48,774 nt of DNA, from contig JBFFUI010000013.1 of assembly GCA_041571435.1 (NCBI GenBank), positions 1 through 48,774 of the forward strand, written 5' to 3'. Made by a program: the position numbers and the translations under genes. Below, in pieces: positions 12,877 through 36,715 of the stretch (the stretch's first letter is position 1; each line of letters starts with the position of its first letter). The notes under the pieces are model-generated. The model saw nothing but the letters and a program-made list of their open reading frames with translations, ran no database searches and had not been told where the DNA came from. Origin of the DNA: Sulfurimonadaceae bacterium. Lineage in GTDB: Bacteria > Campylobacterota > Campylobacteria > Campylobacterales > Sulfurimonadaceae.

Positions 12877-13185
12877 CTAATCCAGCAGTGCCTTTATCTC
12901 AGTGATCCGCTCAGCCGTCGAACCCTCTTGTCGCAACTCATTAAGCTTCTCTGCGACCATACTGTTGCCCATATTCAAAAACAGCCCCTTCAGAGCATGT
13001 AGAGAGAGGTTAAGCGCATCTATATCGATCTGCTCGCTCTCCAACAGTGCCTGCAGTTTGCTCAACTCTTTAGTGAGGTCACGTTTTCCGGCAGCAAGCA
13101 GTGCTGTAATCTGCTCATCTTCAAAGCCAAAAGCCTGAAAATGCTTACGAGCGATCTCCGCTGTATCGTTAATAAGTTTTTCCAA
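12877..13185 (-). CDS. Free-standing Hpt (histidine phosphotransfer) protein
   Basis: Helical 102 aa protein with LHALKG motif; TTG start after AAGGGG. Confidence 0.75.
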   Translation of the reverse strand: MEKLINDTAEIARKHFQAFGFEDEQITALLAAGKRDLTKELSKLQALLESEQIDIDALNLSLHALKGLFLNMGNSMVAEKLNELRQEGSTAERITEIKALLD

Positions 13186-13384
13186 CTGTCACCCCTTCAT
13201 TATCTCACTGTTCATTTCTTATAGTATAAACTATCCAACTGAATATTTACACTACATCATATAATTCAAAATTATACCAAGCTCAACTGTGTATAATTAG
13301 ACAATATCTATGTATCGAAAGCAAGCATTTTCAAAGAGTTAATGCTATATATTTATGTCAGATATTAAAAAGTACGAGGTCATT

Positions 13385-14023
13385 ATGATTAAAATTGCTA
13401 TCGCTGATGACCACGAAATTGTCCGAAGCGGACTCATGATGCTTATCCAGCAACAGGAAAATATGGAAGTAGAGGCTCAGGCATCTTCCTATGAAGAGCT
13501 TATTAATCTTCTGGAAAAAGAGGCCTATGATCTTTTGATTCTGGATCTGAACCTCGGAGACAAAAACGGTCTTGAGTCGATCGAGAATGTCAGCAACCTC
13601 TTTCCCGACCTGCCTATTCTGGTCTTAAGTACCTATCCTGAAGACCCTTATGCCGTTCAGACATTCAAAGCCGGAGCTTCCGGTTATCTCAATAAAAAAG
13701 TGATCTCGGCCGAATTGAGTACAGCCATCCAGAAGATCACATCAGGCAAAAAATATATCAGCGAATCGCTTGCCGAGAACCTTGCATACGGGTTCAGCCT
13801 TGAAAAAACCAGCAAAAATCCGGTTGAGCTGCTTTCAAAACGTGAGTTTGAGATCCTGTCCCTCATCGCTTCCGGCTATGCCTATAAAGAGATCGCACAA
13901 AAACTTGACCTCAGCCCAAAAACCGTCTCGACCTATCGCTCGCGTATATTGGAAAAACTGAACCTCACCAATACCACGCAGCTTTTGCGTTTTGCCTATG
14001 AGCACCAGATAACGAGTTACTAA
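13385..14023 (+). CDS. NarL/LuxR-family response regulator, UvrY/GacA-like
   Basis: IADDHEIVRSG receiver with LILD, HTH LSKREFEIL...LSPKTVSTYRSRILEKL; alternative start at 13355. Confidence 0.92.
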   Translation: MIKIAIADDHEIVRSGLMMLIQQQENMEVEAQASSYEELINLLEKEAYDLLILDLNLGDKNGLESIENVSNLFPDLPILVLSTYPEDPYAVQTFKAGASGYLNKKVISAELSTAIQKITSGKKYISESLAENLAYGFSLEKTSKNPVELLSKREFEILSLIASGYAYKEIAQKLDLSPKTVSTYRSRILEKLNLTNTTQLLRFAYEHQITSY

Positions 14024-25473: not shown

Positions 25474-25558
25474 ACCTTAACCGATAATTACCGTATATTC
25501 CTATTAATTCTATAGTATTTTATTTTAAATTGACTATAGCTGTTTATCTATCCGATGT

Positions 25559-25578
25559 CTGTAGGATTAATCCTACAG
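25559..25578. promoter_or_regulatory. Palindromic operator box 1 (TGTAGG-N6-CCTACA)
   Basis: Perfect 20-bp palindrome CTGTAGGATTAATCCTACAG; the 18-bp core starts 22 nt from minus-strand gcTATAGT (25538-25533). Confidence 0.8.
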
Positions 25579-25730
25579 GACGTAAGCTTTACGCCTCTTG
25601 TATTAACACCACTATATGTAATATATTATACATACAAATGGGGCTTTTTAAAATTGTCCCCGAAAATGAAGTCTGCAGAGGTTTTTATTTCTCTTTCTTC
25701 TGTATAATCCTCCCGCCGAAAGGAGCGGAA

Positions 25731-26036
25731 ATGCCTATCAACAGAGACCAGATAGCCGAAAGGCTAGGATTTAAACGCAGTGACATCGATATGCTGCTTG
25801 CTATGTTCAGCAAAAATGCCGCGACATCTTTTGAAGAGATGCAGACAATGATAGCTGAAAAAAATATGCAGGGGATCGCCGATGCCGCCCATGCAATAAA
25901 AGGTAGTGCCGGCAACTTGAAACTGGATAATATCTACAACCATGCTCTGATGATCGAAATGGCCGCAAAACAGTCCGAAGATCTGGATTATGCCGCAGCA
26001 CACGAACAGTTGGGCAGACTGCTCGATGCCGTATGA
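25731..26036 (+). CDS. Free-standing Hpt protein
   Basis: AHAIKGSAGNL motif; ATG 25731 after AAGGAG; TATAAT at 25703-25708. Confidence 0.88.
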   Translation: MPINRDQIAERLGFKRSDIDMLLAMFSKNAATSFEEMQTMIAEKNMQGIADAAHAIKGSAGNLKLDNIYNHALMIEMAAKQSEDLDYAAAHEQLGRLLDAV

Positions 26037-28376: not shown

Positions 28377-28910
28377 TTAGCTTAGCCCCAATACTGCTCT
28401 GATCTGGTTAGGCATATAATATTCAAACTGTTTAGGGAAGATGAAAAAATCGATTTCACCTTTCGCATCATCCAGTTCACTCCATTCATCAATATCAAAG
28501 TTGATAGCGACAATACCCAATGTAGGGATCTTCGAGATATGTTCAGCCGTCAGCATGTTAGCCAGATCAGTCACTTGGGGATTGTGACTGACGACTAAAA
28601 TACTGTTGAAGCTATTGTCTTCCAACATCAAAGTCTCTTTGAGCGTTTCAGGCTTTGCAAGATACAGTTCCTGAAGATAATGCCTGGGGCCTTCATATTC
28701 CATTATGTCCGCCAGTCCATCTGCCGTCTCTTGTGTTCTTAGAGAACAACTTGCAAGAACAAGATCAGGTGATATACCGCGTAACTTCAGATACGAGCCC
28801 ATCGTGGTAATGTCACGTTTGCCTTTTTTTGTAAGGCCCCGTTCAAAATCACTTGCTCCGGGATCTTGCCAGTCTGATTTCGCGTGTCGAATAAGGTATA
28901 AAGTTTTGAT
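28377..28910 (-). CDS. sixA: Phosphohistidine phosphatase SixA family
   Basis: Manual translation upstream of ATG 28802 gives IKTLYLIRHAKSDW...DFERGLTKKG, then RTQETA and VSHNP. Probable ATC start at 28910-28908. Confidence 0.85.
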   Translation of the reverse strand: MKTLYLIRHAKSDWQDPGASDFERGLTKKGKRDITTMGSYLKLRGISPDLVLASCSLRTQETADGLADIMEYEGPRHYLQELYLAKPETLKETLMLEDNSFNSILVVSHNPQVTDLANMLTAEHISKIPTLGIVAINFDIDEWSELDDAKGEIDFFIFPKQFEYYMPNQIRAVLGLS

Positions 28911-28944
28911 ATTGGCACCTTTCTATCAGTTACTGTTTGTAAAC

Positions 28945-29334
28945 TTAGAGCTTTCCTAGTTCAATAGACATTGATTTAGAAGCTTTGTCCATGATCATTT
29001 TAGCCAAAGCAACATTTCCATCATCACGGAAAATTGAGAAGACGTTCAGTTTTGTGTTGTTGTCAGAACTGAATTCACCTGCACTGTTGATAAGGAATAC
29101 GTGTCCGTCAAGCGTCTTTGCTTCAATAGAAGCTGCTTCACTGAAGCCGACGTCCAGAGAAGATTCTGAAACCATACGATAGGCATCATTGAAGATACTT
29201 GCAGAGTAAGCGATATCTGTACCCGTGTTATCATTGTCGATGTAAAGTGTCTCACCAGAGTAGTTTAGCACGGCAGAACCAAGGTATCCGTTAACTGAAC
29301 GGAGTTTTTTCATAGAATTGTCAAAATCGATCAT
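28945..29334 (-). CDS. Roadblock/LC7 (MglB)-like small protein
   Basis: 129 aa with pattern helix-V.GYLGSAVLNYSGETL...helix...beta strands-GNVALAKMIM, typical of the roadblock fold; AAGGA RBS. Family call is by eye. Confidence 0.6.
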   Translation of the reverse strand: MIDFDNSMKKLRSVNGYLGSAVLNYSGETLYIDNDNTGTDIAYSASIFNDAYRMVSESSLDVGFSEAASIEAKTLDGHVFLINSAGEFSSDNNTKLNVFSIFRDDGNVALAKMIMDKASKSMSIELGKL

Positions 29335-29360
29335 TGTTTTATCCTTTAGATTTTATTTTT

Positions 29361-29879
29361 TTATTTGTTGAGCTGCATCATGAAATCGTTAAACGTTTCA
29401 GCGCTCTGACCATTTTCAGCCAAGAAGTCCATCAAAGCTTTTTCTGACGCTTCTACACCGTCACTTTTCTCAATCTCTAACAGTTTGGCATAAAGTTCAC
29501 CAATTGTTGCTTTAGCGCTCTCAGAAATCTGCTTACGTGTCGAAACATAGTTTCTAAACGAACCGTCTGGGTTCTTCGCTACTCTTACTTGTGCAAGTAC
29601 CCAGTAATAACCGCCGTCTTTACAGAGGTTTTTTACATAGGCATTCACATCTTTACCTGCTTGTATGTTATCCCAAAGATATTTGAAAATAACTTTCGGC
29701 ATATCAGGGTGACGAAGAATCGAGTGTGGTTGATCGAGAAGCTCACCTTGTGTATATCCAGAGATTTTCATAAAAATCGGATTCGTATAGGTAATATTAC
29801 CTTTCTCATCTGATTTAGATACAATCATATCTACACTTGTTACTTCATGTTCAACATCTGTTGGTGTTGGTCTTTCCAT
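29361..29879 (-). CDS. Stand-alone PAS protein, Aer/CetB-like (putative FAD redox sensor)
   Basis: IVSKSDEKGNITYTN..F..ISGY, HSILRHPDMP, LW, VKNLCKDGGYYWV; no MCP or kinase domain; AAGGAG RBS. Confidence 0.88.
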   Translation of the reverse strand: MERPTPTDVEHEVTSVDMIVSKSDEKGNITYTNPIFMKISGYTQGELLDQPHSILRHPDMPKVIFKYLWDNIQAGKDVNAYVKNLCKDGGYYWVLAQVRVAKNPDGSFRNYVSTRKQISESAKATIGELYAKLLEIEKSDGVEASEKALMDFLAENGQSAETFNDFMMQLNK

Positions 29880-29940: not shown

Positions 29941-29958
29941 TGTAGGGAATATCCTACA
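29941..29958. promoter_or_regulatory. Palindromic operator box 2 (TGTAGG-N6-CCTACA)
   Basis: TGTAGG-GAATAT-CCTACA; 23 nt from minus-strand TGtTAATAT (hexamer 29918-29913) and 22 nt from plus-strand TATAAT (29980-29985). Confidence 0.8.
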
Positions 29959-32168: not shown

Positions 32169-33488
32169 CTATGCACCCCGTAATCTATCAATAAACATTG
32201 GCCACTCCTGTGGTCTGCTGTAATAGTACCCCTGCACTGTTATCGACTCAAACGTTTTTACGATATCATCTTCCAAGGCGGTCTCCACACCTTCGACGAT
32301 CACTTCAAGGTCCAAAGCGCGTGACATATCGATGATGGCCTGAAAGAGCGCCTTGCGCTTTATATCTTTATCCAAATTTCTGACATATGATCTGTCCACT
32401 TTCAAGCTGTTGATGGGGAGTTCTGCCAGATATTTCAGTGAGGTGTAACCGGTACCATAGTCATCGACCTCGATACCGATGCCCATCATCCTGATCTTTT
32501 CAAGCAGCTGTGCCAGGTTCTTGATATTTTGGGTCAGGGTCTCTTCCATGATCTCAAAGTTCAGTTTTTTACCGGCCAGATTGTAGTTATTATGCATAAA
32601 CTGGATCGTTTCAATGAAGTCGCTTGCCATCAGTACTGCGGGCGAGATGTTGACAGAGAGGGAGATGTCCTCGATACCGGCAGCTTCTAGTTCGGAAAAC
32701 TTCTTGGATGCCTCAACAAGGGCCTTGATGGTCAGTGGTCCGATCATACCGCTCTGTTCTGCTATAGGGATAAAAAGCAGAGGTGACACCTCGCCAAATT
32801 GGGGATGACGCCATCTGGCAAGAAGTTCTGCCCCGTTGAAACGCTGCTCGCTATGCGAGTACTGTCCCTGATAGACAAAATAGATCTCACCGTTTTCAAG
32901 CGCGGCCGGTAGGTCCTCCATCAGGCGTTTGCTTTTGAGCAAAAAGGGCTGTTCCAAATTACGGGTAAATGCGATGTGGTTCTTGCCGTCTTTTTGTACT
33001 TTTCGCATGGTATTCTCAGCTGTTTTTAGCAGCCTGTACGCATTGTTTTCGTCAGCAGACGAGAGGCTTATGCCGATAGAGGCGCTGATATAGAACATAT
33101 TGGGATCGACAAAAAAAGGCTCATAAAGTATGGACATAATACGCTTGGCATACTGCTCTGCACTTGCTTCAGACTGCGGTTCCTGTGACACGATCGCAAA
33201 CTGTTCGTTCCCAACTCTGGCCAAAATATCATCTTTGCCCAGATGCGGCTTGATCTTCTCGCTAAGCTGTACGATCAGCTTGTCATCGATATCAAAACCG
33301 AAGGTCTCATTAAAGCGGGCAAGGTCATCGAATTCGATAAAAAGCAGAGAGGTAAGCTGTTTGCTTTCAGAAGTGGCAGCAAGCTTTTTTTCAAGTGATT
33401 TGACCAGATAGGTCCGGTTTGGAAGCAGGGTAAGTGAATCGAACTCTGTCGAATACCAGCCTGTCCTCGGGGTGTGATTTACGACCAT
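32169..33488 (-). CDS. GGDEF(degenerate)-EAL protein, probable c-di-GMP phosphodiesterase
   Basis: DSLTLLPNR, RVGNEQF in place of RxGGDEF; EAL domain AELLARW, VNISP, DDYGTGY, LKVD, EGVE, QGYYY. Confidence 0.88.
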   Translation of the reverse strand: MVVNHTPRTGWYSTEFDSLTLLPNRTYLVKSLEKKLAATSESKQLTSLLFIEFDDLARFNETFGFDIDDKLIVQLSEKIKPHLGKDDILARVGNEQFAIVSQEPQSEASAEQYAKRIMSILYEPFFVDPNMFYISASIGISLSSADENNAYRLLKTAENTMRKVQKDGKNHIAFTRNLEQPFLLKSKRLMEDLPAALENGEIYFVYQGQYSHSEQRFNGAELLARWRHPQFGEVSPLLFIPIAEQSGMIGPLTIKALVEASKKFSELEAAGIEDISLSVNISPAVLMASDFIETIQFMHNNYNLAGKKLNFEIMEETLTQNIKNLAQLLEKIRMMGIGIEVDDYGTGYTSLKYLAELPINSLKVDRSYVRNLDKDIKRKALFQAIIDMSRALDLEVIVEGVETALEDDIVKTFESITVQGYYYSRPQEWPMFIDRLRGA

Positions 33489-34112: not shown

Positions 34113-34130
34113 TGTAGGGCTTTTCGTACA
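34113..34130. promoter_or_regulatory. Palindromic operator box 3 (one mismatch)
   Basis: TGTAGG-GCTTTT-CGTACA; 22 nt from minus-strand gcTATAAT (34091-34086). Confidence 0.7.
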
Positions 34131-35554: not shown

Positions 35555-36715
35555 TCAACTTTCCTGATCATCTTCCTCTTTAATCGTGACTGCCTCATCA
35601 AGCGAACCGTCATTCAGCATCTTTTGATACTCGGCGCTCGTGGTAAACATCAGACGCAGGTTTGCAGGGTTGGAAGCAAACATGTAAGCACTCTCTTCGC
35701 TGATCTTGCCTTGAAGTGTCAAGTGAAAGAGCGAGATGTCAAACGGCATGGACCCGAAACTGTTCTGGTCATGATGCATTGCATCCAGCAGCTCACTGTC
35801 TCGCGATGTCGAAATAAGATAAGAGGTTCTCGGGCTCTTGAACATCAATTCAACGGCCGGTATCATCTCGTCCTCAAGGTCCCGCAGCATACGCTGTGAG
35901 ATCACCACTTCGAGGTTGGAAGCAAGGTCCATACGGACACGTTCCTGCTCCTCTTTCGGGAAGATCGCCAGCAGCCGGTCGATCGTCTCCCGCGCATCAA
36001 GTGTATGCAGCGTCGTAAAGACCAGGTGGCCAGTATTAACCGCTTGTAGGACATTTCTGGCCGTCTCTAGGTCACGCAGCTCACCGACTATGATAATGTC
36101 CGGGTCTTCACGCATAGACGAACGCAAGGCCGAACCGAAGTCGGTAGCATGCTGCCCGATCCCCCGCTGTTCTATAACACATTTGTTATCGTCGTAGACA
36201 TACTCTATGGGATCTTCAATCGTAATAATATGGCGATGACTGTTGCGGTTGATATCTTCGACAATCGAGGCAAGCGTTGTCGACTTGCCGCTTCCTGTTG
36301 TACCGGTGACCAGAACAAGACCCCGCTGCAGTTTTGAGATCTTGGAGAGTGCTGTAGGAAGGTTGAGCTGCTCAAATGATCGTATCTGATGCGGGATCGC
36401 CCTGAAGATGATGGAGAGCCCCTTTAACTGGTGATAGATGTTAACACGAAAACGGTGTTTTTCATCCAGCAGGTAGATCGTATCATAAGCGAGCTGGCGG
36501 GTAAACTCATCCATGTGTTTGTTTACAAGAAACTTGACCATACTCTCAACATGCTTTCCCTCGAGAGGATCTATTGAGAGTGGCATCATCGTCCCTTTGA
36601 TACGGGCTCGGATGACACTGTTGCTCTTTACATGAAGGTCCGTCCCCTCTTTCTCTACCAGTTTCTGTAAAAACGTGTTTAAAATCTCTCTTGAGTTGTC
36701 GCCTTCGATCTGCAT
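35555..36715 (-). CDS. PilT/PilU-family type IV pilus retraction ATPase
   Basis: GTTGSGKSTT, TIEDPIE, REDPDIIIVGE, TGHLVFTTLH, ISQRM. Confidence 0.9.
   Translation of the reverse strand: MQIEGDNSREILNTFLQKLVEKEGTDLHVKSNSVIRARIKGTMMPLSIDPLEGKHVESMVKFLVNKHMDEFTRQLAYDTIYLLDEKHRFRVNIYHQLKGLSIIFRAIPHQIRSFEQLNLPTALSKISKLQRGLVLVTGTTGSGKSTTLASIVEDINRNSHRHIITIEDPIEYVYDDNKCVIEQRGIGQHATDFGSALRSSMREDPDIIIVGELRDLETARNVLQAVNTGHLVFTTLHTLDARETIDRLLAIFPKEEQERVRMDLASNLEVVISQRMLRDLEDEMIPAVELMFKSPRTSYLISTSRDSELLDAMHHDQNSFGSMPFDISLFHLTLQGKISEESAYMFASNPANLRLMFTTSAEYQKMLNDGSLDEAVTIKEEDDQES

Follow-up and report, generated by a model that had tools for sequence, protein, structure and literature searches.

A roadblock protein without a GTPase is encoded as one unit with a free PAS protein, a GAF hybrid kinase and SixA in Campylobacterota

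Introduction

Proteins of the MglB, Aer/CetB and SixA types are known from separate signaling systems, and a gene cluster in a Sulfurimonadaceae bacterium encodes one of each beside a histidine kinase. We analyzed this cluster in a 48,774-nucleotide (nt) window, the whole stretch of DNA considered here, which covers positions 1 to 48,774 of contig JBFFUI010000013.1 from assembly GCA_041571435.1 (genome G000; 2.16 Mb, 100% complete; closest named relatives labelled Sulfurimonadaceae, Sulfurovum and similar). The cluster comprises genes for a stand-alone PAS protein, a 129-amino-acid (aa) roadblock protein, a SixA-like histidine phosphatase and a divergently encoded GAF hybrid histidine kinase, and it sits within a 21-kb island in which Pfam identifies hybrid kinases, Hpt proteins and regulators. 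An earlier note, made from the DNA sequence alone, had grouped the first three genes as a trio whose PAS and roadblock proteins act on SixA or a kinase. Here we describe a four-gene unit in which the kinase is the better candidate target.

Several described systems share parts with this module. Actinobacterial conservons, also designated AGPS, combine the kinase CvnA, the roadblock protein CvnB, CvnC, the GTPase CvnD and the accessory GAF protein CvnF (PMC13343842). As in conservons, the module keeps a kinase and an MglB-type roadblock protein together and supplies a separate sensory protein for a kinase without an outside sensor. Unlike conservons, it has no GTPase or CvnC, it uses a GAF hybrid kinase whose receiver is intact, its accessory is an Aer-type PAS protein, it includes SixA, and its likely output is a phosphorelay. 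Compared with the MglA/MglB pairs of Myxococcus and Thermus (PMC4316618), the roadblock protein has the MglB fold (template modeling (TM) score 0.75–0.78), but its identity is only 8–12%, its genomes lack MglA and its neighbors are two-component genes. The same work counts 328 MglB homologs without a linked GTPase, none of them characterized as of 2014. The module works like the input side of a conservon minus the GTPase; it is not a conservon, an MglA/MglB pair or a CetA/CetB pair.

The PAS protein resembles CetB and Escherichia coli Aer (PMC2628428) in being a free PAS of similar size with the residues by which Aer binds flavin adenine dinucleotide (FAD). In contrast to CetA/CetB, the module has no CetA, no methyl-accepting chemotaxis protein (MCP) and no chemotaxis output, and its PAS is tied to a roadblock protein and a kinase. 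SixA shares with its E. coli counterpart (PMC6282199, PMC7948535, PMC12934123) the minimal histidine-phosphatase fold and the catalytic Arg/His set, and differs in its RHA motif, its place within a kinase module, the lack of NPr in most hosts and a conserved ATC/ATT start. Such starts recall E. coli infC and pcnB (AUU; 10.1101/063800) and sigR (GTC; PMC5472188), where a weak conserved start goes with a good ribosome-binding site and one scarce operon member. Unlike in those cases, the weak start here belongs to a signaling phosphatase.

In the GacS/GacA multikinase network of Pseudomonas, several hybrid kinases and free Hpts are combined with the GacA regulator. The island likewise has several hybrid kinases, free Hpts and a GacA-like regulator, and its palindrome departs from the Gac box at two bases, but the box targets are signaling genes and not known Rsm RNAs. 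We know of no roadblock or SixA component in Gac systems. No description of the module or of its sixA start was found in searches of the open-access literature. The orphan MglB table in the supplement of PMC4316618 may list the module's roadblock genes.

Results

Four genes are inherited as one unit

Three closely spaced, co-oriented genes lie on the minus strand behind a palindrome, box 2, where the earlier note had placed them (Table 1). The PAS and roadblock genes are 26 nt apart and the roadblock and sixA genes 34 nt apart, counting sixA from ATC 28910. The kinase gene diverges from the PAS gene across 141 nt. A search for related loci found 97, and locus counts are given for the best 80; loci were scorable when the sequence extended at least 200 nt upstream (n = 79), at least 700 nt downstream (n = 74) or 3 kb on both sides (n = 50). 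Genome counts come from 24 genomes with a roadblock ortholog and 49 others, a set that partly overlaps with the 80 loci. All of these counts are descriptive because the genomes are kin and the sets partly overlapping.

The PAS gene stands directly upstream of the roadblock gene in every scorable locus (79/79). Directly downstream is sixA in 63 of 74 loci, on the same strand in 54 and convergent in 9, and the survey confirms that the PAS-roadblock-sixA trio is conserved. A GAF hybrid kinase gene within 3 kb is likewise a regular companion (49/50 loci), although its position varies between upstream and downstream of the roadblock gene and between strands. In 47 of 50 loci all four genes are present, and their order and orientation vary. 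No genes in cvnA-B-C-D synteny are among the recurring neighbors of the 80 loci.

Joint presence across genomes follows the same pattern. Every one of the 24 roadblock-ortholog genomes encodes the kinase N-terminus, 23 a PAS ortholog and 22 a SixA ortholog, compared to a kinase N-terminus match in a single one of the 49 genomes without a roadblock ortholog, itself 65% complete (threshold E ≤ 6e-13, chosen after seeing the data). Four genomes of the same genus, 99–100% complete, contain no orthologs of any module gene and no GacA-like regulator, and the roadblock family is patchy more widely (16/221 genomes of the order, 15/401 of the phylum). By median identity the roadblock protein is the best conserved (74%), followed by PAS (70%), SixA (59%) and the kinase domains (34–68%); in rank correlations of the identities among the four genes, no pair stands out. 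We conclude that the inherited unit comprises four genes and not three, namely those for PAS, the roadblock protein, the GAF hybrid kinase and SixA. The kinase is the steadiest partner of the roadblock protein besides PAS, and SixA is the loosest member.

The roadblock gene usually lies near one GAF type, and no GTPase partner was found

The 129-aa protein itself has no Pfam or NCBIfam match, and PF03259 is absent for it and for the whole of G000; its homologs match PF03259, some above the cut-off. An AlphaFold2 (AF2) model (predicted local distance difference test score 85.5) arranges it as helix, two strands, helix, three strands, helix. Foldseek aligns the model with MglB 6hjm (E 1.6e-7, TM 0.75), and its Atlas neighbors are roadblocks. 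Searching the PDB by sequence with the roadblock alignment gave two chance matches only, both designed proteins. As modeled, the protein has the Roadblock/LC7 (MglB) fold, in agreement with the earlier note. Over the 80 loci its identity is 62–98%. A profile search of 1.84 billion representatives yielded 211 roadblock matches; many of the 64 that were scanned are receiver-DUF4388-roadblock fusions, and the family is thus tied to two-component signaling.

The earlier note reported that no MCP or GTPase is encoded nearby, and profile searches extend this to the whole complete assembly. The MglA profile (PF03029) has no match in G000, so that no MglA elsewhere accounts for the roadblock protein, and none above the cut-off in any of the 24 module genomes. 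A Rup GTPase was not found in 20 of those genomes, G000 included. The three matches of the Roc profile in G000 belong to two long frames, of 516 and 457 aa, and not to a small GTPase.

Roadblock paralogs that lack both PAS and SixA share about 30–35% identity or less with the module protein. In 9 of 14 such loci the same GAF type is encoded next door or next but one, as a full kinase, a GAF-receiver protein or a lone GAF; among these nine, L130 and L131 are near-copies. The GAF profile matches 3 open reading frames (ORFs) in the whole of G000. That paralogous roadblocks adjoin the same GAF type points to the GAF region as the roadblock protein's partner and to PAS as a clade-specific input.

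Two other settings of the family were seen. Between or beside paralogous roadblock genes lies a gene for a 105-aa protein that is weakly Hpt-like and has no phospho-His (L132:6301-6648, minus strand; L133:6322-6669, plus strand); in L132 it adjoins a lone GAF gene. A 116-aa protein encoded beside paralogous roadblocks resembles Hpt only weakly (E 0.008) and has no such His either. Distant roadblocks (L175–L218), either stand-alone or receiver-DUF4388-roadblock, have a small GNAT-like gene in the same locus in 34 of 44 cases, mostly just downstream, and often follow a PAS kinase and a sigma-54 regulator; no small GTPase was seen in these loci. The distant roadblock-GNAT loci are possibly a separate undescribed module.

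The PAS protein is predicted to bind FAD

The best solved relative of the PAS protein is the Aer PAS domain 8dik (E 9.1e-23). Across 64 orthologs, H52, R56, H57, W69 and N84 are invariant and D59 is at least 90% conserved. R56, H57, D59, W69 and N84 correspond to residues on which FAD binding in Aer depends (PMC2628428) and to the Trp/His/Asn triad of FAD-PAS clusters (PMC10468136). The Aer/CetB FAD-PAS group (cluster 14 of PMC10468136) is marked by this triad and by Arg57/His58/Asp60 equivalents, all of which are present in the module PAS. Because the protein keeps the Aer FAD residues, we predict that it binds FAD and senses redox state. The Aer/CetB-type assignment in the earlier note is borne out by the Aer match and these residues.

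Chemoreceptors do not accompany it. PF00015, the MCP domain, has no match in G000, leaving no CetA elsewhere to account for the PAS protein, and none in 20 of the 24 module genomes, so CetA cannot be its general partner. A stand-alone, unlinked paralog with 80% identity is encoded at G000:C3:7046-7558 (minus strand), with similar paralogs in four close genomes. Four further stand-alone PAS genes lie elsewhere in G000, five in all with this paralog.

sixA very likely starts at a conserved ATC codon

SixA-type phosphatases carry an RH(G/A) motif, a second Arg and a second His. These residues are intact in the window protein (R8, H9, R58, H109), and TIGR00249 is by far its best family (E 1.1e-18; 67.5 bits, below the 74.5 cut-off). 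PDB 2rfl (E 4.4e-14) and 1ujb are its structural relatives. The earlier note's SixA assignment is supported, and the gene is the sole His_Phos_1 match in G000.

The extent of the gene required revision. The earlier note had the trio's genes and order right; the 141-aa ORF from ATG 28802, however, leaves out the catalytic RHA motif. The sixA frame opens after two stops, has no ATG, GTG or TTG before 28802, and contains AAAGGT followed by six bases and ATC AAA ACT. With the RHA motif upstream of ATG 28802 in an open frame, sixA very likely begins at ATC 28910 and has 177 codons. We also considered whether the SixA N-terminus arises by frameshifting or by readthrough out of the roadblock gene and rejected this, because two stops precede the frame, the spacing varies and inverted copies keep ATC/ATT.

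Comparison of 70 relatives indicates that the unusual start is maintained. The codon at this position is ATC in 40, ATT in 13 and ATG in 17. The 53 ATC/ATT copies use 2 codons here compared to 18–19 at each of the two preceding positions, 44 of them have no canonical start in the whole upstream open frame, and ATC/ATT is kept in 10 of 11 inverted copies. Ribosome-binding sites, scored against the anti-Shine-Dalgarno motif, are strong in ATC/ATT copies, with a median of −6.8 kcal/mol and values of −3.5 or better in 96%. Most ATG copies have weak sites (median −3.1 kcal/mol; −3.5 or better in 41%). The catalytic His is lost in 10 of the 70, namely in 8 of 17 ATG copies versus 2 of 53 ATC/ATT copies. 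Both the ribosome-binding-site pattern and the pattern of His losses are consistent with selection that keeps the amount of active phosphatase low. For E. coli, initiation at AUC and AUU is put at 1–2% of AUG in the data cited (10.1101/063800), and the GTC start of Streptomyces sigR is described as keeping its product scarce relative to its operon partner via IF3 (PMC5472188). By analogy, SixA is likely far below its operon partners in amount owing to the ATC/ATT start. Gene callers restricted to ATG, GTG and TTG would truncate these sixA genes past the catalytic motif.

In several module genomes a distant sixA is also present elsewhere. Where the start of a distant sixA could be read, in six genes from other loci, it is ATG or GTG. 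ATC/ATT starts are not supported as a general habit of G000, where they look rare: a crude scan of 1823 ORFs, blind to short extensions, yielded 14 candidates, which include sixA and are mostly doubtful. Possible ATC starts behind a ribosome-binding site occur at G000:C38:17246 (plus strand) and G000:C39:7503 (minus strand), in genes that by eye we take to be homoserine acetyltransferase-like and ATPase-like. The His-less sixA copies (L046, L050, L054, L081, L084, L085, L086, L089, L095 and L096) have Ser, Asp or Asn in place of the His; judged by sequence, they are possible pseudo-phosphatases kept for binding.

Work on E. coli SixA names NPr and Ndk as its substrates (PMC7948535, PMC12934123), and Epsilonproteobacteria are listed as carrying SixA without NPr/HPr phosphocarriers (PMC7948535). 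HPr has no match in G000 and none in 22 of the 24 module genomes. It is plausible that this SixA drains the Hpt proteins of phosphate.

A second tier in the window's clade would link the kinase to Hpt proteins and a GacA-like regulator

In 57 kinase sequences H218, N331, N335, the G boxes, D615 and K667 are invariant, and the best Foldseek match of the AF2 model is ShkA. By eye the kinase has no obvious membrane segment. It has no Hpt domain of its own and so needs a free Hpt, two of which are encoded in the island. An Hpt gene is present in 22 of 50 loci, the HALKG motif is kept in 18 of 18 homologs within loci, and a motif scan of all 80 loci gave no further convincing Hpt. For the Hpt gene listed at 25530–26036 (plus strand), a start at the TTG would run across a box; ATG 25731, which gives 101 aa, is likelier.

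NF007018 is the best NCBIfam match of the GacA-like regulator, below the cut-off of that family. Orthologs occur in 13 of 24 module genomes and in none of the 4 same-genus genomes that lack the module. Box 2 lies 61 nt from the PAS start and 62 nt from the divergent kinase start, and differs by two bases from the Gac box consensus as printed in PMC11837529. Upstream of PAS, a box with at most 2 mismatches is found in 28 of 68 loci versus 0 of 68 control windows, placed 69–91 nt from the PAS start in 27 loci and 132 nt in one. Box-positive loci also tend to have an Hpt gene (24/28 versus 0/40 box-negative loci) and the regulator (16/28 versus 1/40). A promoter scan gave no more sites than shuffled sequences. 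We conclude that the Hpt-regulator-box layer is a second tier in the window's clade. Further Gac-like boxes lie at 25560–25577 before the Hpt gene, at 34113–34130 before a single-domain receiver gene, and at G000:C10:41453, near a hybrid kinase on another contig.

Discussion

We propose that the module is a cytoplasmic redox input, a reading to which we give about an even chance: an FAD-PAS protein would signal through the roadblock protein, a GTPase-independent adaptor, to the GAF hybrid kinase and on through Hpt to the GacA-like regulator, with feedback at the box and a scarce SixA resetting the relay. Judging by its conserved residues, the free PAS would bind FAD and change shape with redox state as Aer does. 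A roadblock dimer may bind both PAS and the N-terminal GAF region of the kinase, as their gene linkage suggests, and this binding would tune kinase or phosphatase activity in either direction. Phosphate would pass from H218 to D615, residues that are present and whose chemistry is established, and then to a free Hpt. The likely endpoint in the window's clade is the GacA-like regulator, which by binding the box between the divergent units would form a feedback loop. SixA would not itself be gated; by slowly removing phosphohistidine from Hpt or the kinase, it would set a threshold or the time over which the signal decays. Its amount would be a small fraction of that of its operon partners, given a strongly indicated start codon and a level estimated from E. 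coli.

Where the earlier note had PAS and roadblock acting on "SixA or a kinase", the kinase half is the better reading because the GAF hybrid kinase follows the roadblock protein even into paralogs without PAS and SixA. Gating chiefly of SixA is not supported because sixA is absent, inverted or deprived of its catalytic His more often than any other member.

A number of observations weigh against the redox input module. Its partner assignments come from gene linkage among related, non-independent genomes. At one ortholog locus, L138, only PAS and roadblock are encoded, and the five extra stand-alone PAS genes of G000 mean that a free PAS need not act via a roadblock protein. No GAF neighbor is found in 5 of the 14 PAS-less roadblock loci (2 end at a contig edge), and the GAF type occurs in 0 of the 44 distant metagenome loci, 34 of which have a small GNAT gene; the roadblock-GAF link is therefore limited to Campylobacterota. 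The Hpt, box and regulator are confined to one clade, so the proposed output is not general. For SixA, ATC/ATT and ATG starts are separated by only 3 changes on a quick tree (68 of 70 rows, 2 partial rows dropped), so the start-codon patterns may reflect one history. Action of SixA on the Hpt domain of ArcB in vivo was not reproduced in the experiments reported on that point in PMC6282199, and G000 encodes Ndk, an alternative substrate.

The presence of Ndk, which is a demonstrated substrate of the E. coli enzyme in the work cited (PMC12934123), also feeds a different account, in which the genes have a promoter region and an island in common and are co-regulated, but their products are physically separate parts: PAS and roadblock would act on another target, while the substrate of SixA would be Ndk or another metabolic protein that carries phosphohistidine. 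As the sole His_Phos_1 match in G000, sixA may serve general duties, and the existence of unlinked PAS paralogs suits this account as well. We nonetheless find it unlikely. The linkage outlasts inversion and reordering and holds where box and regulator are absent, His-less SixA copies stay in the module, suggesting a binding role, and several module genomes keep a second sixA apart from it, the readable starts of such distant genes being canonical. More doubtful still is a switch in which PAS and roadblock are bound to SixA and make its dephosphorylation of Hpts depend on redox state; we consider it decidedly improbable. The short gaps of one likely operon in 54 of 74 loci, the Hpt genes in 22 of 50 and the lack of HPr/NPr as an alternative substrate all suit such a switch. 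Against it, PAS and roadblock are retained where sixA is non-adjacent (11/74), convergent (9) or His-less (10/70), the weak start would leave SixA far scarcer than its supposed regulators, and paralogous roadblocks accompany the kinase's GAF type and not SixA.

The MglB fold raises the further prospect that the roadblock protein is a GTPase-activating protein or scaffold for a Rup-type small GTPase that some genomes have lost, much like a conservon shedding its GTPase; orphan MglB genes in GTPase-less conservons are indeed mentioned in PMC4316618. In 9 of 80 loci (L033, L036, L041, L044, L047, L081, L085, L087 and L091) a Rup GTPase operon with Group 1 Rup-like neighbors lies no more than 6 kb from the module, which also counts against a GTPase-independent adaptor. 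However, the Group 1 Rup system (Rup GTPase, coiled-coil, OmpA and output genes) is present in only 4 of the 24 module genomes and absent from G000, whose Roc-profile matches offer no small GTPase in its place. The roadblock protein is 97–98% identical among Rup-less genomes of the genus, unlike a relic, and the account of Group 1 Rup systems in PMC4316618 includes no MglB. We regard a GTPase scaffold as very unlikely. An ordinary CetB role, with PAS signaling to a chemoreceptor and its neighbors incidental, draws on the resemblance to Aer PAS and on the MCPs in 4 of 24 module genomes; the missing MCPs of G000 and the other 20, together with the fixed place of PAS upstream of the roadblock gene (79/79 loci), largely refute it and leave it scarcely credible.

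If the redox input module is right, it bears on two stated questions. The module family points to control of histidine kinases as one job for GTPase-less MglB homologs. PMC7948535, in its treatment of Epsilonproteobacteria, leaves something other than NPr/HPr as the necessary SixA substrate there, and here SixA accompanies a hybrid kinase and free Hpts. Both questions, the SixA substrate and the role of orphan MglB proteins, become testable in one small soluble system. The findings also suggest that chemoreceptor-less bacteria of the Sulfurovum and Sulfurimonadaceae type redeploy an energy-taxis sensor for gene regulation. A broader claim we put forward only tentatively, as somewhat short of an even chance: that this is a new signaling input, in which a GTPase-less roadblock protein couples a free flavin PAS to the GAF region of a cytoplasmic hybrid kinase, joined by the first SixA dedicated to a two-component phosphorelay, its dose set by a conserved ATC/ATT start. 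Roadblock-GAF pairing would then be a general way in which Campylobacterota control kinases, and PAS would be a clade-specific addition to it.

Coordinates and further features of the island

Table 1. Positions of the module genes, candidate relay partners and regulatory sites in the window.
Feature	Position	Strand	Details
PAS protein, Aer/CetB-type, stand-alone, predicted FAD redox sensor	29361..29879	-	172 aa; Pfam PAS_3 E 9.5e-15
Roadblock/MglB-fold protein, 129 aa	28945..29334	-	AF2 and Foldseek; no GTPase partner found
sixA, SixA-like histidine phosphatase	28377..28910	-	177 codons from inferred ATC start; R8-H9-A10, R58, H109
sixA start region: Shine-Dalgarno-like AAAGGT, 6-nt spacer, ATC	28908..28922	-	two in-frame stops directly before
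Box 2, perfect palindrome TGTAGG-N6-CCTACA, Gac-box-like	29941..29958		centre of divergent promoter region
GAF hybrid histidine kinase, 685 aa	30021..32078	+	GAF-DHp-CA-degenerate receiver-receiver (Pfam); fourth module member
Stand-alone Hpt (HAIKG)	25731..26036	+	Pfam Hpt E 8.1e-9; candidate relay step and SixA substrate
Second stand-alone Hpt (HALKG)	12877..13185	-	Pfam Hpt E 3.7e-4, below cut-off; candidate relay step and SixA substrate
UvrY/SirA/GacA-like response regulator	13355..14023	+	NCBIfam NF007018 E 1.6e-45; candidate output and box binder

A PilT/PilU-like ATPase is encoded near the island, 5.5 kb away (window 35555–36715, minus strand), and another directly beside a paralogous roadblock-GAF kinase pair (L135:8693-9922). 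A connection with type IV pili was considered, but none of the 80 module loci has a PilT-like gene within its flanks. At 32169–33488 (minus strand) the window encodes a GGDEF-EAL protein with a degenerate GGDEF motif (GNEQF) and an apparently intact EAL domain, by its sequence a likely cyclic di-GMP phosphodiesterase. A family of GGDEF-EAL size recurs in 20 of the 80 loci.

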